Notes under the pieces: model-generated
Told to the model about the DNA's origin: nothing
Seen by the model: only the letters and a program-made list of their open reading frames with translations
The model's database searches: none
Shown: in pieces, positions 28,777 through 37,156 of the stretch
Layout: every line of letters starts with the position of its first letter
Position numbering within the stretch: position 1 is the stretch's first letter
Program-made: the position numbers and the translations under genes
NCBI GenBank assembly: GCA_963768705.1
Contig: CAVYJE010000028.1
Location: 4,523 to 68,522 of the forward strand
Source: an uncultured Chloroflexia bacterium
Lineage (GTDB): Bacteria; Chloroflexota; Dehalococcoidia; DSTF01; WHTK01
DNA length: 64,000 nt
Direction of reading: 5' to 3'

Positions 28777-29094
28777 TCATTCAGGCTCCAGCGAGCACTT
28801 GAGGGGATACTCGTACTCGCGCGCCAGGGAGTGGACCTGAGAGATCTTGGCTTCGGCCGTCTCGAACGGGAACAGCCCGGCGATGCCGATGCCCCGCTGA
28901 TGGACGTGCATCATGATCTGGAAGGCCGTTTCGTGGGGGTGGCGAAAGATGTTCTCGAGGATGAAGACGACGAACTCCTGGGTCGTGTAGTCGTCGTTAT
29001 GCAGGAGAACCTTGTACAGCGGCGGCCGCTTCGCCTCATCGCGCGATTCGGTGGCGACATCGCCTTCCTGCTCCTCCGGCCGTCTCTGAGTCAT
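28777..29094 (-). CDS. clpS: ClpS adaptor protein
   Basis: PPLYKVLLHNDDYTTQEFVVFILENIFRH...AFQIMMHVHQRGIGIAGLFPFETAEAK. Start taken at MTQRRPEE (29094). Confidence 0.88.
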   Translation of the reverse strand: MTQRRPEEQEGDVATESRDEAKRPPLYKVLLHNDDYTTQEFVVFILENIFRHPHETAFQIMMHVHQRGIGIAGLFPFETAEAKISQVHSLAREYEYPLKCSLEPE

Positions 29095-29170
29095 AAACCC
29101 TTCTTCGACTGTATTCGCTGGCTTCGGCGCTCGCAACTGAGGTGAGTCTGACGGCGTTGCAGTCGGCGCG

Positions 29171-29915
29171 TTAAGGCGATGCAAGCTCCGAAGCGCGAAG
29201 CTCGTCGAACCGCGCCGTCCACGATCCGGGCGGAGCCGGTATCGCCGTGAGCTGCTCGACCAACGCCGTGAAGTCCTGGCGGGGCATTCGCTCGGCGCCG
29301 AGGCTCATGAGGTGAGGGTTCTCGACTTGCGCGTCGATGAGGGGATAGCCCCATTGGGCGAGTGCGCGCGCCAAACCCGCCAGAGCGACCTTCGAGCCGC
29401 CCGATTCGGCGCTGAACATACTCTCCCCGAAGAACATGTGCCCGATGGCGACGCCGTAGATCCCGCCGACGACGACGATCGCCATCGAACACCTCGACCG
29501 AGTGCGCGTGGCCCAGGCGATGCAGCTCCACGTAGGCTGCCTGCATCTCCAACGTGATCCAGGTCCCGTCTTGCCCTGCCCTGGGGATGGACGCGCAGGC
29601 TGCGATGACGGCATCGAAGGCTGTATCGGCTCGCACCGTCCAGGTTGAGTTGCGCAGGGAGCGGCGGAAGCGGCTCGATAGCCTCATTGCGTCGGTGCGG
29701 AAGACAACGCGAGGATCCGGTGCCCACCAGAGGATCGGTTGGCCGTCCGAGTACCAGGGGAAGACGCCGTGCTGATAGGCGTTGAGAAGCCGAGTTGGCG
29801 AGAGGTCGCCGCCCACTGCCAGCAAACCGTCCGGCCAGCGCATCGCCCGGTCGACGGGAGGGAATGGAGCTTCGGGGTCCTCAGGCAGCAGGTGGAGGCG
29901 CCGGTTCATGACCAT
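29171..29915 (-). pseudogene. aat: leucyl/phenylalanyl-tRNA-protein transferase, frame break about 29483
   Basis: ORF 29091-30245 (from MVMNRRLHLL at 29915) carries LLNAYQHGVFPWYSDGQPILWWAPDPR...HSVEVFD. The protein continues in the next frame as ORF 29171-29614 (AIVVVGGIYGVAIGHMFFGESMFS...PLIDAQVENPHLMSLGA). Confidence 0.8.
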
Positions 29916-29950
29916 AGCGTAGCTTGCTGCCGCGACGTTGTAGCTGCCTG

Positions 29951-31336
29951 TTACGGAGCGGAGGCTGAACCGGGAGCAGGCAGGCTGTCCATGACCACCC
30001 GCAGGGCTCGGACGACGTCTTCGTCTTGCTCGGGATGGACGGTGCGCGGGTCCAGCAGCAGTCTGGCGTGCTCGATGCGGCCGACAACCGACGGCGTCCC
30101 CAAACGCAGACGGCGCGCCACTTCGTCGAGGTCGGGGGCCTCGATGGCGAGGACGAAGGTCGGGAGGCTCTCTTCCGGCAGCGAGCCTCCGCCGATCATC
30201 GAGCGCCCTTCCATCACCTCGCCCCAGCCGACGGCCTGGGCCCATTGCGAGGCGCGTCGTTCGGTCTCTGCTGCGGTGAGAGCGATCATGCGCCAGACGG
30301 GCACACTACGTTCGGCGTCCCCGCGTACGTAGTGCATGAGGGTGGCATTGAGCCCCGCGATGGTGGCCTTGTCGAGGCGCAGTGCCCGCGCGAGGGGGTG
30401 GCGCTTCAGGCGATCGATCAGGCTCTTGCGCCCGGCGATGATTCCGGCCTGCGGTCCTCCGAGCAGCTTGTCGCCGGAGAACAGGACGAGGTCGGCGCCG
30501 GCCTCGATGCTCTCCTGGGGCCTCGGCTCTTCCACGAGGCCGTAGCCACGCGTGTCCAAAAGGCAGCCGGAGCCTACATCGTCAATCAGGACCAGACCGT
30601 GGGCATGGGCCAGCTCGGCGAGCCCTCCGAGGTCAGGCGACGCTGTGAAGCCGATGATGCGGTAGTTGCTGGTGTGCACCCGCATCAGGGCGACCGTTGA
30701 TTCGTTCAGCGCCGCCTCGTAGTCCCGCAGGTAGGTGCGATTGGTGGTGCCGACCTCGACGAGCCGAGCACCGCTCTGGGCCATGACGTCCGGGATGCGG
30801 AAGCCTCCGCCAATCTCGATGAGCTGCCCTCGGGAGATCACGACCTCTGCGTCCTGGGCCAGCGCTGAGAGCGTGAGGAGCAGGGCCGAAGCATTGTTGT
30901 TTACGGCCATCGCCGCTTCGGCGCCCGTGAGCCGGCACAGAAGCGTTTCGAGATGCACGTATCGACTGCCGCGTTCGCCGGTGTCGAGGTCGTACTCGAG
31001 GTTACTGTAGCCGCGGCTCACCTCTGCCATTGCTGCGATAGCGGATTCGGCGATCGGCGGCCTGCCCAGGTTGGTGTGGATGATCACGCCGGTGGCGTTG
31101 ATCACCGGTCGCAGGCCGACACCCAACGAGGCATAAGCTCGCCGGGCTGCTGACTGGGCAATCTCGTCGTGCGAGGCGATAGCTCCACCTTGCGCGATGG
31201 CGGTGCGGCGGACATCGAGCTCATCCCGGACGGCCTGGGTAACGCTACTGGTGCCGAGCTCACTGACAGCCTGCTCCAGGCGCGAATTGCGCAGCACGCG
31301 GTCGACCGACGGGAGCTGTTCGTAGCCGTTGCTCAC
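29951..31336 (-). CDS. selA: L-seryl-tRNA(Sec) selenium transferase
   Basis: 461 aa. MSNGYEQLPSVDRVL..., NATGVIIHTNLGR, FSGDKLLGGPQAGII (PLP-Lys region). Confidence 0.88.
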   Translation of the reverse strand: MSNGYEQLPSVDRVLRNSRLEQAVSELGTSSVTQAVRDELDVRRTAIAQGGAIASHDEIAQSAARRAYASLGVGLRPVINATGVIIHTNLGRPPIAESAIAAMAEVSRGYSNLEYDLDTGERGSRYVHLETLLCRLTGAEAAMAVNNNASALLLTLSALAQDAEVVISRGQLIEIGGGFRIPDVMAQSGARLVEVGTTNRTYLRDYEAALNESTVALMRVHTSNYRIIGFTASPDLGGLAELAHAHGLVLIDDVGSGCLLDTRGYGLVEEPRPQESIEAGADLVLFSGDKLLGGPQAGIIAGRKSLIDRLKRHPLARALRLDKATIAGLNATLMHYVRGDAERSVPVWRMIALTAAETERRASQWAQAVGWGEVMEGRSMIGGGSLPEESLPTFVLAIEAPDLDEVARRLRLGTPSVVGRIEHARLLLDPRTVHPEQDEDVVRALRVVMDSLPAPGSASAP

Positions 31337-31366
31337 GTCCAGATTCTACGACGCCAGAGACTCACG

Positions 31367-31463
31367 TGGCGGGAGTGCGAGGGAGTCGAACCCTCCCATC
31401 CTTCCGACGGAAGGACGCAACGATTTTGAAGACCGCGAGAACCACCGGGCCCCATCCACTCCC
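31367..31463 (-). tRNA. selC: tRNA-Sec (UCA)
   Basis: Minus strand reads GGGAGTGG...anticodon loop CTTCAAA (TCA). It has a long variable arm TCCTTCC-GTC-GGAAGGA, a T-arm GAGGG-TTCGACT-CCCTC, and the 3' end GCACTCCC-G-CCA. It lies 30 nt upstream of selA. The 8th acceptor pair would be a G.G mismatch. Confidence 0.85.
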
Positions 31464-31534
31464 GCTCAGGAGCTTACAGACCAAGGCGGTCTAAGTCACA
31501 TCTGCCGTCTTCGACGCGGGCCTAGAATGGGGAC

Positions 31535-33427
31535 ATGTTCGTCCTCGGCACCGCGGGCCACGTCGATCACGGCAAATCGACGCTCGTACATGCGCTCACC
31601 GGCATCGACCCGGACCGGCTCCAGGAGGAGAAGGACCGAGGCCTGACCATCGACCTCGGATTTGCCTGGCTGACGTTGCCGGGCGGCACCGAAGTCAGCA
31701 TCGTCGACGTGCCCGGTCACGAGCGCTTCATCAAGAACATGCTCGCGGGCGTCGGCGGGATTGACCTTGCGCTGCTCGTCATCGCTGCAGACGAAGGCGT
31801 CATGCCGCAAACCCGAGAGCATCTCGCGATCCTCGACCTGCTTGGCGTCGAAAACGGCGTAGTTGTCATAACAAAGAGTGACCTCGTGGACCCGGATTGG
31901 CTGGATCTGGTTTGCGCTGAGGTCGAGGACACAGTGAAGGGCACGATTCTGGAGGGAGCGCCGCTTTTACGCTGCGCGGCGACGACCGGCCAGGGGCTCG
32001 ATGAGCTGCTCCAGGTCATCGAGGCGAAGTTGAGCGTCACGGCCCCAAAGCGCAACCTCGGCCGGCCTCGATTGTCCATCGACCGGGTCTTCACGATCTC
32101 GGGATTCGGGACGGTGGTGACGGGCACGCTCATCGATGGCGTCCTGCGCACCGGTCAGGAGGTCGAGATCGTCCCCGCCCTGGGCGTCGGCAACGCCGAA
32201 ACCCTGACGAGCCGAGTGCGCGGCCTGCAGAGCCATCGCAGCAAGGTGGAGGAGGCGCAGCCCGGTACGCGCACGGCGATCAACCTCGCAGGCGTTGAGC
32301 CAGCCGACCTCGCACGCGGGCAGGTCGTGACGACGCCGGGCTGGCTTCGGCCGACGATCGCTGTCGACGTGAGGCTGCGGGCGCTTCGCGACCTCTCGCA
32401 TTCCCTACGGCACAACCTGCAGGTGAGCTTCCACAGCCTGGCCGCCGAAGCGCCTGCTCGGCTGCGACTGCTGGAGTCGGATGAGCTTGCGCCGGGCGAA
32501 GAGACCTGGGCGCAGGTCCGATTGCTGAGACCACTTGCCCTCTCGGCGGGCGATCGCTTCATCATCCGTGACGCCAACGACACTGTCGGCGGCGGCGTCA
32601 TCGTGGCCACGCACGCCAGGCGTCACCCCCGGCGCCGCGAGGGCGTCATCTCGGCGCTGGAGCGCCTGGCCGGCGGCGACCCAGCCGAAGCTCTGGCTGC
32701 CGTGATCGCTGAGGCGGAACCGATGGCTCTACAGGATGCAGACAGTCGTGGCGGGCTCTCCTCCGAGGTCGCCGCCGAGGCCATGCAGCGCCTGAGTGAC
32801 GAGGGCCGCATACGCATTCTGGGAACGGGCGGCAGACGCTTCGCCTACACGGCAGACGGTTTCGAGCGCCTACAAACGGCAGCGCTTGCGGCCGTCGAGG
32901 CCTACTTGAAGGACCAGCCCTTGCGTCGCGGCCTGGGCAAGGAGGAGCTACGTAACCGCCTGGGCCTCGCGGCGTCCATCTTCTCGCCCGTGCTTGAGGC
33001 GATCGTCGCTGGCGGGCGTCTCTTCGACGCCGGCACTGTCGTGGCACCCGAGGGTTGGGCGCCGGTGCTGTCGGTCGAGAACCAGCGACAGGCAGAACGC
33101 TTCCTTGCAGACCTGCGGGCCAACCCGTACTCACCCAACCTGGAAGGGCGACCCGCCGATGACCTCCTGGGTTATCTCGTCGACCGTGGGGATGTCGTCG
33201 ATTGTGGTGGTGGGATTGTCTTTACGAAGGCGGCATTCGAGGAAATGACGCAACGCATCGAGACGTTAGGGAGAGAGAAGCGCGCCTTCACGATGGCGGA
33301 CGTCCGCGACCTCCTGGGCAGCTCCCGGCGCTACGTCCAGCCGCTGCTCGAAGAGCTGGACCGGCGCCGCGTCACCTTGCGCCGCGGCGACGAGCGCGTG
33401 CTTGGCCGCGACGAGCCGGGAAGCTGA
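31535..33427 (+). CDS. selB: selenocysteine-specific elongation factor
   Basis: 630 aa. [23 protein letters not shown], then long C-terminal winged-helix-type extensions. Confidence 0.88.
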
Positions 33428-33440
33428 CCCGCCGGGCTGT

Positions 33441-34484
33441 CTAGGGTTGGACCGTGAGGCCTTCGCCTTCCTGGACCTCGCCGACAATCGCAGCGTTGTA
33501 TCCGTCACTCCGCAGTCGCGCTAACAGCGCATCGGCCGCGGCCGTATCGACGGCCATGAGCAGGCCGCCGGAGGTCTGGGGGTCGAAGAGCAGACGCTGC
33601 ATCTCGTCTCCCAGGGCATCGAGCCCGCGCACACGCTGACCCAGGTAATCGCGGTTGCGGTTGACGCCGCCGAAGTCGACGCCGTCCTGGGCGTAGCCAA
33701 GGGCGCCCGGCAACAAAGGCAGCGCCGATGCCCTCAGGGCGATCCGGACGTGGCTGTGGTCGGCAATCTCGAGGGCGTGGCCGACGATGCCGAAGCCTGT
33801 GACGTCGGTGAGGGCGTGAGCGCCGGCTTCTCGTGCCAGGTGTGAGGCGTGGCGGTTGAGCAGGAGCATGCTCGCCACTGCTGCATCGAAGTGCTCGGGC
33901 GTGACCAGATCGCGTTTTGCCGCCGTGAGCACGAGGCCCGTACCGAGGCCCTTGGTCAGAACCAGCGCGTCGCCGGGCCTTGCTCCTGCCTTCGACATGA
34001 CCTGCTTGGGGTGCACGATGCCCATGACCGAGAGCCCGTACTTGGGCTCGGCATCGATGACGGTGTGGCCACCGGCGATGATGCCGCCGCCTTCCGCGAC
34101 CTTATCCGCGCCGCCCATGAAGATTTCGGCGACGACTTCGTTCGGGAGGTCTTCAGGGAAGCCGGCTATGTTCAGGCACAGCACTACCTCACCCCCCATG
34201 GCGTAGACATCTGACATGGCGTTGGCGGCGGCAATCGCGCCGTACGTCCATGGGTCGTCTACCACGGGAGGGAAGAAGTCCACGGTCTGGACTATCGCCG
34301 TCTCATCGTCGAGCTGGTAGACGGCAGCGTCGTCCGTGACGCCTACCAGGACGCGGGGATAGTCCTGCGGCCGGAACTTCTCGAGCAGTGGGCGCAAGAC
34401 CTGCGCCAGCGTGCCGGGTCCGGCTTTACCGGCTCAACCCGCGCAAGACGCTAGCGAGGTCAATCGGACCTGTTCGCGGCTCAT
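33441..34484 (-). CDS. selD: selenide, water dikinase (SelD), selenocysteine-containing (in-frame UGA at 34434-34436)
   Basis: The ORF track starts at 34397, but the frame stays open upstream apart from one TGA: ATG 34484 gives MSREQVRLTSLASCAG-U-AGKAGPGTLAQVLRPLLEKF... The TGA sits where SelD has its Cys/Sec of the G(C/U)GxK loop. AAGGGGG RBS. The rest is canonical SelD (AAVYQL, DFFPPVVDDP, MGG, GGHT). Confidence 0.85.
34391..34407 (-). other. candidate SECIS hairpin for selD
   Basis: On the mRNA, GGCGCA-GGUCU-UGCGCC forms a 6 bp perfect stem starting 29 nt after the U of UGA. The GGUC-containing apical loop resembles the E. coli fdhF SECIS apex. Confidence 0.45.
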
Positions 34485-34647
34485 GGTCACCCCCTTCGTT
34501 GAGATGCTGCCAGTCTAGCAGCGGGCCTCGACTCAACGGCGGGACGAAGCAGTCACGACGGCAACCAATTACGGAAGAGTGGACGATCCGTCCAGGCTGT
34601 AGGAGAATCTCCGCAACGTAAGTCTCGATCTACGCTGGGAGCCAGTC

Positions 34648-35913
34648 TTGGTCCGTCTCTCCGACCTGCCGCCCGAATACGCTGAAAGCCTGCGCAAGGT
34701 GCCGATGCCGGTGTTCGAGTCCACACCGTGGACGCCGGCCCCGGACCTCAAGTCCGCGCGAGTCGCCATCGTCTCCACCGCGGGCCTGCATCTGGCGGAT
34801 GCCCCCAAGTTTTCGGGCGGATCGGGCGACTACCGCCTGCTGCCTTCCGACCTCGACTATGCCGACCTGACAATGAGCCACGTCAGCTTGAACTTCGACC
34901 GCAGCGGCTTCCAGCAGGACGTCAACGTCGTCTTCCCGCTGGAGAACCTCAAGCACCTGGTCGCACAAGGCGAGGTCGGTTCCGTCGCCCAGTGGCACTA
35001 CTCCTTCATGGGCGCCACGGACCCCACCCGCATGGCCGATACGGCGCCGCAGGTTGCAAAGTTGCTCAAAGAGGATGGCGTCGATGCGGTCATCCTCGTC
35101 CCTGTCTGACCAAACTGCACGCGCGCCGTTGGCGGGCTCTCGCACTACCTGGAAGCAGAAGGCCTGTCGACGGCCAGCATCAGCCTGATCCGAGAGCACA
35201 CGGAGCAGATCAAGCCGCCGCGCGCCCTCTGGGTGCCCTTCGAGCTCGGCCGTCCTTTCGGCCCGCCGAACCACCAGGAGTTCCAGCTCGACGTCCTGCG
35301 CTCCCTGCTGGACCTTTTCAGGCGTGAGTCTGGTCCCGTACTCGAAGACTACCCGCACGACTCGCCGGTCACCGAAGACACGGACGCCGTTTGGGCCTGC
35401 ACCTTGCCGCTGCCGCCTCTCGAGCCGGCAGCCACGCCCGAGGAGGCGCTTGTGCAGTCGCTCCAGCAGGAAATCGGCAGCCTGGCGCCCTGGTACGCGG
35501 AGTCGATTCGCCGTCGCGGCCGCACGACCTTCGGTCTGAGCGGTCTAACTGCTGACGCGATGCCTGAGATCGCCGAGTTCCTGGCGCGGATGTCCTGTGG
35601 CGAGAACCCGGAACCCCCGGAGGGGCTGTCGGACCCGCTGCCGGGCGCGATTCGCTTCATGGTCGACGACGTGAAGGCGTACTACATGGAGGCGGCGAAC
35701 GAGCAGCCCGGTGCGCCACCACCCGGCGGTGCGCGCATGTGGCAGTGGTTCTTCCACGAAACCCGCATGGGTGCCGTGCTTTACGACCTGCGAGATCGTT
35801 TCAACGCGGAACGCGAGGAAGCAACGAAGGCGAACGGTGGCCAACCGCCACCTGGCCCGCCACCGCCGAACATGATCTCGACCCGGTTCGCCCAGCGACC
35901 GCCGTCCCATTAG
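34648..35913 (+). CDS. GrdB/PrdB-family (glycine/sarcosine/betaine/D-proline reductase selenoprotein B-like) protein with in-frame UGA at 35107-35109
   Basis: ORFs 34648-35109 and 35233-35913 are in the same frame, and the gap between them is open: ...EDGVDAVILVPV-U-PNCTRAVGGLSHYLEAEGLSTASISLIREHTEQIKPPRALWVPFELGRPFGPP... Family hallmarks upstream are VAIVSTAGLH, NVVFPLENLKHLVAQGEVGSVAQWHYSFMG. TTG start with a GGGAG RBS. About 200 aa of C-terminal extension is of unknown function. Confidence 0.75.
35121..35137 (+). other. weak candidate SECIS hairpin for the GrdB-like gene
   Basis: GCGCGCC-GUU-GGCGGGC forms 6 bp plus one G.G mismatch. The apical GUU loop sits 22-24 nt from the U of UGA. Read by eye only. 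Confidence 0.25.
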
Positions 35914-36022: not shown

Positions 36023-37156
36023 TTACTCAGAAGCTCGAGTACTAGTCGAGAGGTAAAACGCACCCAGGGCCAGGACGCCCACGAGCGCGAGGAACGCGCC
36101 AGGGCCGCTGGCCGAACGGTCGGCGGCGAGGCCGGCGCTTCCGGTGCTGGGAGGCGTGATCGGAGCTACTGGCGTTTCTGAGACCAGCGACAAGCATGCC
36201 AGTCGGGCGCCGGCACCGCCGGTGGCGTTGGTCGGTTCGGCGTGAATCACCAGCGACTGCGTGGCACCTTCGGGGATCAGGAAGGGGACGGTTGTGCTGG
36301 AATGGGCTGAGCCATCCGCAAGGATGGTGAAGTCCAGCCAGATCTCGGTCTGATTGTTCACAACCTTGGGGTCCGAAGTAGTGATGTTGTAGTGGGGCCC
36401 CGCGGCCGCGCCATCACCTGCTGCACATGCACCCACGTGCAAGTGAGCACCGAACGTCATTCCGGCGTCCGCGGCGGCCAATCCTTCGACATCCAGGACC
36501 ACGGTGGTGGTGTTGTTGGAGCTGGAGGCGACTACCTGTGCGGTTGCGCCGTCCGTTGGGTCATTCGATGTGGGCTGCAGGTCCACCAGGAGCCCTGAGC
36601 CTGCCGGCACGGCGATGGACGATGTGGTTACGCGGAGGCAGGCGAGTCGAGCTCCGGCGGCGCCTGTTGGGCTGGTCGACATGGCGTGGACCACCAGAGA
36701 CTTCGCTGCACCGTTAGGAATGACAAACGGCACAGTCGTGCTGGAGTGGGCGGTACCGTCCAGGCCGATTGTGAAGTCGAGCCAGACTTCGGTCTGGTTG
36801 CTCACAACTTTGGGGTCCGCGGTGCTGGCGTTGAAGTGTGGCCCTGCTGCTGCGCCGTCACCCAGCTGGCATGAGCCGACGTGCAGGTGGGCGCCTAATA
36901 CTGTCCCAGCGGCACTCGTGTCGAGACCGGCGATGTCGAGGTCGACTGTCGTGGAGCCGTCGGATGTGGTGGAAACAACCTGGGCCGTCGCGCCATCGGT
37001 CGGGTCATCAATGCCTCGCTGGAGGTCAACCAGTGGCCCGGAGCCTGCGGGTCCGGACACGTTCGCTGGGGCCGCCTGAGCGAGTGCTGCCAGTCCGAAG
37101 AATAGTGTGGCGATGATCGAGAAGGGGATCAGTCCCCGAATGGCTAACTTGCGCAT
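36023..37156 (-). CDS. secreted tandem Cu,Zn-SOD-family protein lacking the zinc loop (Cu-only SOD-like x2) with C-terminal membrane anchor
   Basis: Signal peptide MRKLAIRGLIPFSIIATLFFGLAALAQA. There are two repeats of about 140 aa, each with GAHLHVG(S/A)C...GDGAAAGPH(F/Y)N...SLV(V/I)HA...G(A/G)AGARLACL. These match SOD1 H46/H48, C57, H63 (GPHFNP), H120 (LVVHE) and C146 (SRLACG). No H-x8-H-x2-D zinc loop is present. The tail PPSTGSAG...GAFLALVGVLALGAFYLSTSTRASE looks like a sorting/anchor signal. Confidence 0.7.
   Translation of the reverse strand: MRKLAIRGLIPFSIIATLFFGLAALAQAAPANVSGPAGSGPLVDLQRGIDDPTDGATAQVVSTTSDGSTTVDLDIAGLDTSAAGTVLGAHLHVGSCQLGDGAAAGPHFNASTADPKVVSNQTEVWLDFTIGLDGTAHSSTTVPFVIPNGAAKSLVVHAMSTSPTGAAGARLACLRVTTSSIAVPAGSGLLVDLQPTSNDPTDGATAQVVASSSNNTTTVVLDVEGLAAADAGMTFGAHLHVGACAAGDGAAAGPHYNITTSDPKVVNNQTEIWLDFTILADGSAHSSTTVPFLIPEGATQSLVIHAEPTNATGGAGARLACLSLVSETPVAPITPPSTGSAGLAADRSASGPGAFLALVGVLALGAFYLSTSTRASE

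Follow-up and report, generated by a model that had tools for sequence, protein, structure and literature searches.

Probable UGA recoding in selD and a PrdB-like gene at a selenocysteine-insertion locus of an uncultured Chloroflexota bacterium

Two adjoining genes in a 64,000-nucleotide stretch of DNA from an uncultured Chloroflexota bacterium (GenBank assembly GCA_963768705.1, contig CAVYJE010000028.1, positions 4,523 to 68,522; the whole stretch is hereafter called the window) carry an in-frame TGA: selD, which encodes selenophosphate synthetase, and a gene for a PrdB-like protein. The question raised by this locus is whether these TGAs end the two genes, as calling of open reading frames (ORFs) would have it, or are decoded as selenocysteine (Sec). 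The genes for tRNA-Sec (selC), SelA and SelB lie alongside, and we consider it very probable that the region is a canonical bacterial Sec-insertion locus, accompanied by two UGA-recoded genes. The biology of such loci is already established, and the current understanding of Sec decoding is unchanged by this one, which adds a new member of known families from a Chloroflexota lineage without cultured representatives. It is of value mainly for annotation, and it re-flags a widespread selenoprotein family.

The Sec-decoding machinery

The genes of the region and the two UGA codons are the following (window coordinates, with the supporting method or model in brackets):

29951–31336, minus strand: selA, L-seryl-tRNA(Sec) selenium transferase, 461 amino acids (TIGR00474, PF03841)
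31367–31463, minus strand: selC, tRNA-Sec, anticodon UCA, encoded CCA end (ARAGORN; Rfam RF01852)
31535–33427, plus strand: selB, Sec-specific elongation factor, 630 amino acids (TIGR00475)
33441–34484, minus strand: selD, selenophosphate synthetase, Sec form, 347 amino acids from ATG 34484 (TIGR00476)
34434–34436, minus strand: predicted Sec codon (UGA) of selD (sequence; alignment to Cys17)
34648–35913, plus strand: PrdB-like orphan selenoprotein (predicted), 421 amino acids, TTG start, motif PV-U-PNC-TRA (PF07355, relatives)
35107–35109, plus strand: predicted Sec codon (UGA) of the PrdB-like gene (sequence, homolog alignment)

All four parts of the machinery exceeded their curated cut-offs. 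SelA scored 553.6 bits with TIGR00474 (cut-off 267.9) and matched PF03841 with E = 4e-136. SelB scored 316.8 bits with TIGR00475 (cut-off 242.25), and its Pfam domains were GTP_EFTU, the SelB beta-barrel, and SelB-wing_2 and SelB-wing_3 (PF09106, PF09107). With the TGA read through, SelD reached 363.9 bits with TIGR00476 (cut-off 125), and both the N-terminal and C-terminal AIRS domains were found. The tRNA-Sec, which has the long variable arm, scored 66.6 bits with RF01852, compared to a gathering score of 47. selA lies downstream of the tRNA gene on the same strand, separated from it by exactly 30 nt (31337–31366). selB is divergent from the tRNA gene and convergent with selD, whose stop at 33441 is 13 nt from that of selB, and the PrdB-like gene is divergent from selD. 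A preliminary description of this DNA had reported a complete Sec-decoding set in this arrangement, with a tRNA-Sec that the covariance model has now confirmed. It had also pointed out that ORF calling would miss the two recoded genes, and the standard ORF list does shorten selD to 33441–34397 and split the PrdB-like gene into 34648–35109 and 35233–35913.

From what is established for these families, the product of selC would be charged with serine, and SelA would convert Ser-tRNA-Sec to Sec-tRNA-Sec, using selenophosphate from SelD as the selenium donor. SelB, an EF-Tu-like GTPase, would bind a short hairpin just 3' of the UGA through its C-terminal winged-helix domains and bring Sec-tRNA-Sec to the UGA, where Sec would be inserted and termination avoided.

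The eighth pair of the acceptor stem of the tRNA-Sec is a G.G mismatch (GGGAGUGG / GCACUCCC). The tRNA-Sec of a sister species (L001:2654-2750) has an identical stem, and its variable arm shows compensatory changes relative to that of the window. The G.G pair is therefore a feature of the lineage rather than an assembly error. An alphaproteobacterial tRNA-Sec (L076) has A.C at the same pair.

In-frame TGA codons at Cys/Sec positions

Reading the TGA of selD as U gives a SelD protein of 347 or 349 residues. The likely start is ATG 34484 (MSREQ..., as in relatives; preceded by GAAGGGGG) rather than the in-frame GTG 34490, and the Sec is therefore residue 17, the same number as in Escherichia coli. 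The alignment with E. coli SelD (3U0O; E = 1e-63) covered the whole length of the protein and placed U on Cys17 and K on Lys20. At this site, GUAGK of the query lies over GCGCK of the E. coli protein, with Lys20 three residues after the Sec position. selD was present in 64 of 81 related genomes, drawn at the levels of genus, family and order, most of the copies having exactly one in-frame TGA and a minority none. With SelD itself a selenoprotein, the first enzyme of the pathway would depend on its own pathway, in the manner of a feedback.

The full-length homologs of the PrdB-like protein are Cys forms of ≈370–436 residues with 38–52% identity to it. U falls on an invariant Cys of these proteins within the motif PV-C-PNC-TR, so that U-P-N-C aligns to C-P-N-C. 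The preliminary description had placed both TGAs exactly at the Cys/Sec positions of their families, and the two alignments bear this out. A genomic scan with one genome per species located at least 571 PrdB-like loci, the best 80 of which were analyzed. In all 80 the codon is TGA, within PV-U-Px-C-TRA, and read-through produced a single ORF of about 390–425 residues in 75 of them. These loci come from Chloroflexota (Dehalococcoidia), Alpha-, Beta- and Gammaproteobacteria, Desulfobacterota and other taxa. The closest homologs in protein collections (52–83% identity) are 235–265 residues long, cover the part after the TGA only, and are mostly named "hypothetical protein". Because the nearest PrdB-like entries for metagenome-assembled genomes of this lineage are such C-terminal fragments and selD is here truncated by ORF calling, selenoproteomes of uncultured Chloroflexota are systematically under-called.

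Hairpins downstream of the UGA codons

On the 3' side of each of the two UGAs lies a 17-nt hairpin, formed by a G-U-N loop on a 7-bp stem, as a candidate selenocysteine insertion sequence (SECIS):

34391–34407, minus strand: selD hairpin GGCGCAG-GUC-UUGCGCC, nt +30 to +46 from the U of the UGA (conservation in relatives)
35121–35137, plus strand: PrdB-like hairpin GCGCGCC-GUU-GGCGGGC, 11-nt spacer after the UGA (81-sequence alignment)

For selD, the hairpins were compared at the 24 loci where the site could be located, 19 with TGA and five with TGC. The hairpin, as GGCGCAG-GUN-CUGCGCC, was kept in all 19 TGA-form relatives, and four of the five TGC forms clearly lacked an intact copy, although both forms encode LAQVLRP-like peptides. 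The hairpin is thus tied to the UGA form, which is the signature expected of a SECIS.

For the PrdB-like gene, 81 sequences were aligned without gaps from the UGA, and the hairpin (GCGCGCC-GUN-GGCGGGC) occupies positions 15–31 of this alignment. Five of the seven pairs showed changes on both sides, and none of 500 shuffles attained the observed values. Paired bases made up 86.6% of cells, compared to ≤56% for controls with slid pairing partners. The third-codon entropy was 0.24–0.52 bits in the stem, 1.1–1.8 bits at most flanking third positions, and 1.5 bits at the third base of the loop, and the GC content of the loci ranged from 43 to 72%. The stem is nearly frozen at synonymous sites, through selection on the RNA and not on the protein alone. 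A search for SECIS structures had been proposed in the preliminary description, and conserved hairpins are present 3' of both UGAs, by covariation for the PrdB-like gene and by the TGA/TGC comparison for selD.

The PrdB-like protein

The protein had been described as a member of the GrdB family. This stands at the level of the domain: PF07355 (Pfam GRDB) matched residues 17–151 over profile positions 205–345 of 347, with 43.6 bits compared to a gathering score of 22. It does not stand for the narrower families, as the protein fell below every equivalog cut-off for GrdB, GrdF and GrdH and below the subfamily cut-off. The best NCBIfam match was PrdB (TIGR04483) with 110.9 bits (cut-off 300), and the protein B models TIGR01917, TIGR01918, NF040794 and NF040795 gave 40.4, 49.8, 57.1 and 56.2 bits, compared to cut-offs of 602.2, 65.45, 800 and 775, respectively.

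A family under the name "Proline reductase PrdB", with the motif UxxC, ranked third in abundance among the selenoprotein families of the Sargasso Sea, with 42 sequences (Zhang et al. 2005), and PrdB was represented by 235 Sec forms and 110 Cys forms in the Global Ocean Sampling (GOS) survey (Zhang and Gladyshev 2008). UxxC is the motif given for both PrdB and GrdB in the tables of the two surveys. Like the window protein, this family has the PF07355 domain, UxxC and Sec/Cys pairs, and it is abundant outside Stickland fermenters. The window copy differs in coming from an uncultured Chloroflexota genus and in standing beside selD. Judged by its sequence, the window protein is a member of this orphan "PrdB" UxxC family and not a true GrdB or PrdB. 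We infer its membership from the shared domain, motif and habitat.

An AlphaFold2 model built with 60 of the family sequences had a mean predicted local distance difference test (pLDDT) of 91.5 and a predicted template modeling score (pTM) of 0.90. It shows one compact fold that includes strands from both sides of U. U itself sits between a strand (147–151) and a helix (155–170), a typical place for a CxxC/UxxC redox motif. A sequence search of the PDB with the protein gave no match. The "PrdB" UxxC family is widespread and abundant, and has a confident model, yet it is without a solved structural relative or a conserved partner gene.

The PrdB-like protein is most likely a stand-alone selenol/thiol oxidoreductase. 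Sec154 would attack the substrate, Cys157 would resolve the adduct to give a selenenylsulfide, and a thiol system would then re-reduce the protein. A Cys-form member from an alphaproteobacterial metagenome-assembled genome (P0042, 708 residues) carries a fused TauD/TfdA dioxygenase domain, which hints at the catabolism of small molecules and is a possible lead to the class of substrate rather than evidence.

sel genes were found within 6 kb of the PrdB-like gene in six of the 80 loci, in three phyla; by a rough estimate, fewer than one of 80 would be expected by chance. Proximity to sel genes is not a general trait of the family: besides the window, the PrdB-like gene stands directly beside selD, in tandem or divergent, in L001, L002 and L072 and in about seven of the genomes of the genus, whereas no more distant genome in the sample has this arrangement. 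Where the genes are linked, the cause may be co-regulation, co-transfer, or a functional connection with selenium metabolism. That the protein is a stand-alone selenoenzyme with a fold new to the PDB and with a function tied to selenium handling or to SelD appears unlikely. If it were so, its roles could include the supply or recycling of reduced selenium for selenophosphate, or a selenium-responsive regulation in common with selD.

One of the PrdB-like loci (L036) is on a 2.6-kb contig labelled as a metagenome-assembled genome of Nitrosopumilus sp. It holds a bacterial PrdB-like gene with a bacterial-type hairpin in the coding region, and its presence under an archaeal label is probably a binning error.

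Alternative readings of the locus

If both TGAs were real stops, pseudogene lesions or assembly errors, selD would run from TTG 34397 and the neighboring gene would yield two small proteins, 34648–35109 and 35233–35913. Frameshift-like defects are indeed numerous in the draft assembly, with nuoD, nuoM, moeB, amt and aat among the affected genes, and single-base errors are common in it. Public gene calls also list the C-terminal piece of the PrdB-like gene as a separate protein. However, all 80 independent PrdB-like loci, from several phyla, have TGA at the same codon, as do most of the selD copies in relatives, and this conservation argues against an error at the two sites. Furthermore, a selD starting at 34397 would be without the glycine-rich loop that bears Cys17 and Lys20, the Cys-form homologs of the PrdB-like protein are full length, both halves of that protein belong to one predicted domain, and both TGAs are followed by conserved hairpins. 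We regard this explanation as very improbable. It is barely credible that the UGAs are read through but decoded as Cys, Trp or Gly, either by a variant of the genetic code or by a Sec-like tRNA carrying Cys. Cys forms of both families do exist and are presumably functional. However, TGA is an ordinary stop in this genome, where it terminates 475 of 1,414 long ORFs with a high GC content at third codon positions (high GC3), or about a third, and the two in-frame TGAs are therefore exceptions and not a reassigned codon. The sole tRNA with a UCA anticodon in the window is a standard tRNA-Sec adjoining selA, and SelA, SelB and SelD are all intact, with scores at the equivalog level. The loss of the selD hairpin once the codon is TGC is what would be expected under SelB-dependent decoding.

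A different alternative concerns the PrdB-like protein alone, which could be subunit B of a true D-proline or glycine/betaine reductase made up of several subunits, with its partners in the unassembled 31% of the genome. PrdB is the best curated match and the PF07355 domain is present, and PrdA/GrdE, GrdA and GrdC/D could all be missing from an assembly (4.14 Mb in 28 contigs) that is 68.7% complete. Indeed, two genomes of the same genus (G005:C1:3561-8077 and G006:C2:8819-13380) have a glycine-reductase-type cluster with a GrdA gene containing one TGA and a PF09338 GrdE/PrdA-like gene. On the other hand, the scores listed above are far under the PrdB and GrdB cut-offs, and a helical C-terminal extension of ≈200 residues lies outside the 238-position PrdB model. 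Neither PF09338 (PrdA/GrdE type) nor GrdA (PF04723) had a match in the window genome at its 68.7% completeness or in 18 of the 20 relatives searched. Clustering of the genes next to the 80 PrdB-like loci showed no recurring partner gene and no PF09338 neighbor, and the family is abundant in oxic surface-ocean metagenomes. We consider the B-subunit explanation quite improbable, and the PrdB-like protein probably does not form part of a Stickland-type reductase for proline or glycine.

Beyond the assembly defects, several points weigh against Sec insertion as we propose it. Sec incorporation at both UGAs is predicted from what was observed, namely the families to which the proteins were assigned, the coincidence of the Sec and Cys positions, and hairpins that are conserved and covary, and the chemistry proposed for the PrdB-like protein is likewise something that we infer. 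The selD hairpin begins 26 nt after the UGA rather than 11 nt. Single-sequence folding of the two post-UGA regions gave structures no better than those of shuffled sequences (z = 0.08 and −1.97). From the 81 PrdB-like sequences, RNAalifold chose another, weak register (11–31, 12–30, and 14–16 with 26–28), and our hairpin was specified by hand from these same sequences. In addition, when the PrdB-like model was compared to PDB structures with Foldseek, no match had an E value under 0.01, and TM-scores were ≤0.22.

The RNAalifold register, which included only one compensatory pair, was rejected in favor of the hand-specified register, which accounts better for the changes in column 30 because column 16 changes along with it in all cases. 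A 14-bp stem from single-sequence folding of the PrdB-like gene was dropped, as it is not conserved in relatives.

Genome-wide selenoproteome

The preliminary description had suggested a very small selenoproteome, with selD and the orphan gene beside it as the only candidates in view. This did not hold when the whole assembly was scanned. Every in-frame TGA was considered, codon usage on both sides was compared in six frames, and a hairpin filter was applied; a scan of this kind could overlook Sec genes with atypical hairpins or with a Sec very near either end of the gene. It gave four more candidates (contig and coordinates, with the Sec motif):

C14:174881-175702: two-domain rhodanese, U at the catalytic Cys, CY-U-QGGGRS (PF00581; TGA in orthologs)
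C4:78227-78874: DsbA-like protein, V-U-PWC (PF01323; TGA in orthologs)
C8:302412-304070: 553-residue protein (UGSC-domain fusion) with an N-terminal UGSC-family domain, GH-U-STC (PF24696, NF041046; TGA in orthologs)
C1:42607-43365: glutaredoxin-like protein with a C-terminal extension, PG-U-SSC (assigned by motif only; TGA in orthologs)

In all four, a hairpin with a GGUC, AGUUG or GUU loop starts 13–16 nt after the UGA. All four also have orthologs in sister genomes that contain a single in-frame TGA, and Cys-form relatives are present for three of them. One and the same 15-nt SECIS core, CGGCGGUCGCCGUGC, occurs in the rhodanese and UGSC-domain genes and is translated as A-V-A-V in each. The same peptide occurs in unrelated proteins because the RNA element dictates the sequence. 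SelD, "PrdB" (UxxC), UGSC, DsbA-like and rhodanese proteins are established selenoprotein families, and glutaredoxin is also in published lists.

With these candidates included, the organism has at least six selenoprotein genes, not two, and six is a minimum because the assembly is incomplete. A compact SECIS rule emerges for the lineage, namely a hairpin of 17 nt that starts 11–26 nt after the UGA and has a GUN or GGUC loop on a 7-bp stem, and this rule yielded the six genes from a single draft genome. Both molybdopterin oxidoreductases in the assembly are without in-frame stops, so that no formate dehydrogenase of the Sec type was seen.

TGA-interrupted ORFs of nuoD, nuoM, moeB, amt, fecCD, an amidase, a GNAT protein and a GT2 protein were rejected as selenoproteins, since they looked like artefacts of frameshifts or like neighboring genes that share a frame. 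At position 114718 of the minus-strand scan of C1, a lipoprotein ORF and a GT32-like glycosyltransferase ORF are joined in frame by one TGA; this site had no hairpin or Cys-aligned position and was not counted. Short out-of-frame stretches with in-frame sequence on either side, often with an in-frame TGA, were observed in several housekeeping genes, namely nuoD (C8, at about 689.7 kb of the minus-strand scan), moeB (C8, 243.5 kb), nuoM (C21), amt (C9) and a fecCD permease gene (C1). They have the appearance of paired indel errors, as in a draft assembly that may have been made from long reads, and single TGAs in this genome therefore require comparative support before a Sec call. The stops of the long high-GC3 ORFs comprised 704 TAG, 475 TGA and 235 TAA, and the predominance of TAG is unusual for a genome with 65% GC.

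Comparison with known systems

The E. coli sel system (selC, selAB and selD) has the same four components, each of which is present in the window at the equivalog level. The gene order is unlike that of E. coli, with selC and selA in the same direction, selB divergent, and selD convergent with selB. SelD of the window is a predicted selenoprotein, whereas that of E. coli has Cys17, and the Sec-type formate dehydrogenase of E. coli was not seen in the window assembly. In E. coli fdhF, too, the SECIS is a short hairpin on the 3' side of the UGA whose apical loop contains G-U, and the selD loop of the window, GGUC(U), is as in fdhF. The minimal fdhF element reportedly consists of an 11-nt spacer and a 17-nt hairpin, like the element of the PrdB-like gene. 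The loops in the window differ from the E. coli system in being mostly 3-nt GUN loops on a 7-bp stem without an obvious bulged U, and so does the 26-nt distance between the UGA and the selD hairpin.

SelD of the Sec type is well known, and the SelD structures from Aquifex aeolicus (PDB 2ZOD and 2YYE) were solved with Cys replacing Sec. The window protein resembles such Sec-containing SelD in having U at the Cys17 position of the N-terminal glycine-rich loop (SCAG-U-AGK) and in its AIRS domains. Nothing essential is different from known Sec-type SelD, and Sec and Cys forms alternate among close relatives of the window genome.

The PrdB-like protein is homologous to clostridial PrdB and GrdB over ≈200 residues that include the Sec site, and probably has in common with them the use of Sec as a nucleophile together with a resolving Cys. 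It differs from them in its extra helical C-terminal half of ≈200 residues and in having no detected partner, and it is without the ≈200 N-terminal residues of GrdB.

Neighboring genes

Just downstream of selA, the gene aat (Leu/Phe-tRNA-protein transferase; 29091–30245, minus strand) is split by a frameshift near 29470–29480. One frame matches Pfam positions 1–106 of 171, and the GGIYG...GESMF part continues in ORF 29171–29614. On the other side of the locus, a gene convergent with the PrdB-like gene (36023–37156, minus strand) encodes a secreted protein of 377 residues with two tandem Cu/Zn-SOD-like domains (Pfam Sod_Cu, in two stretches).

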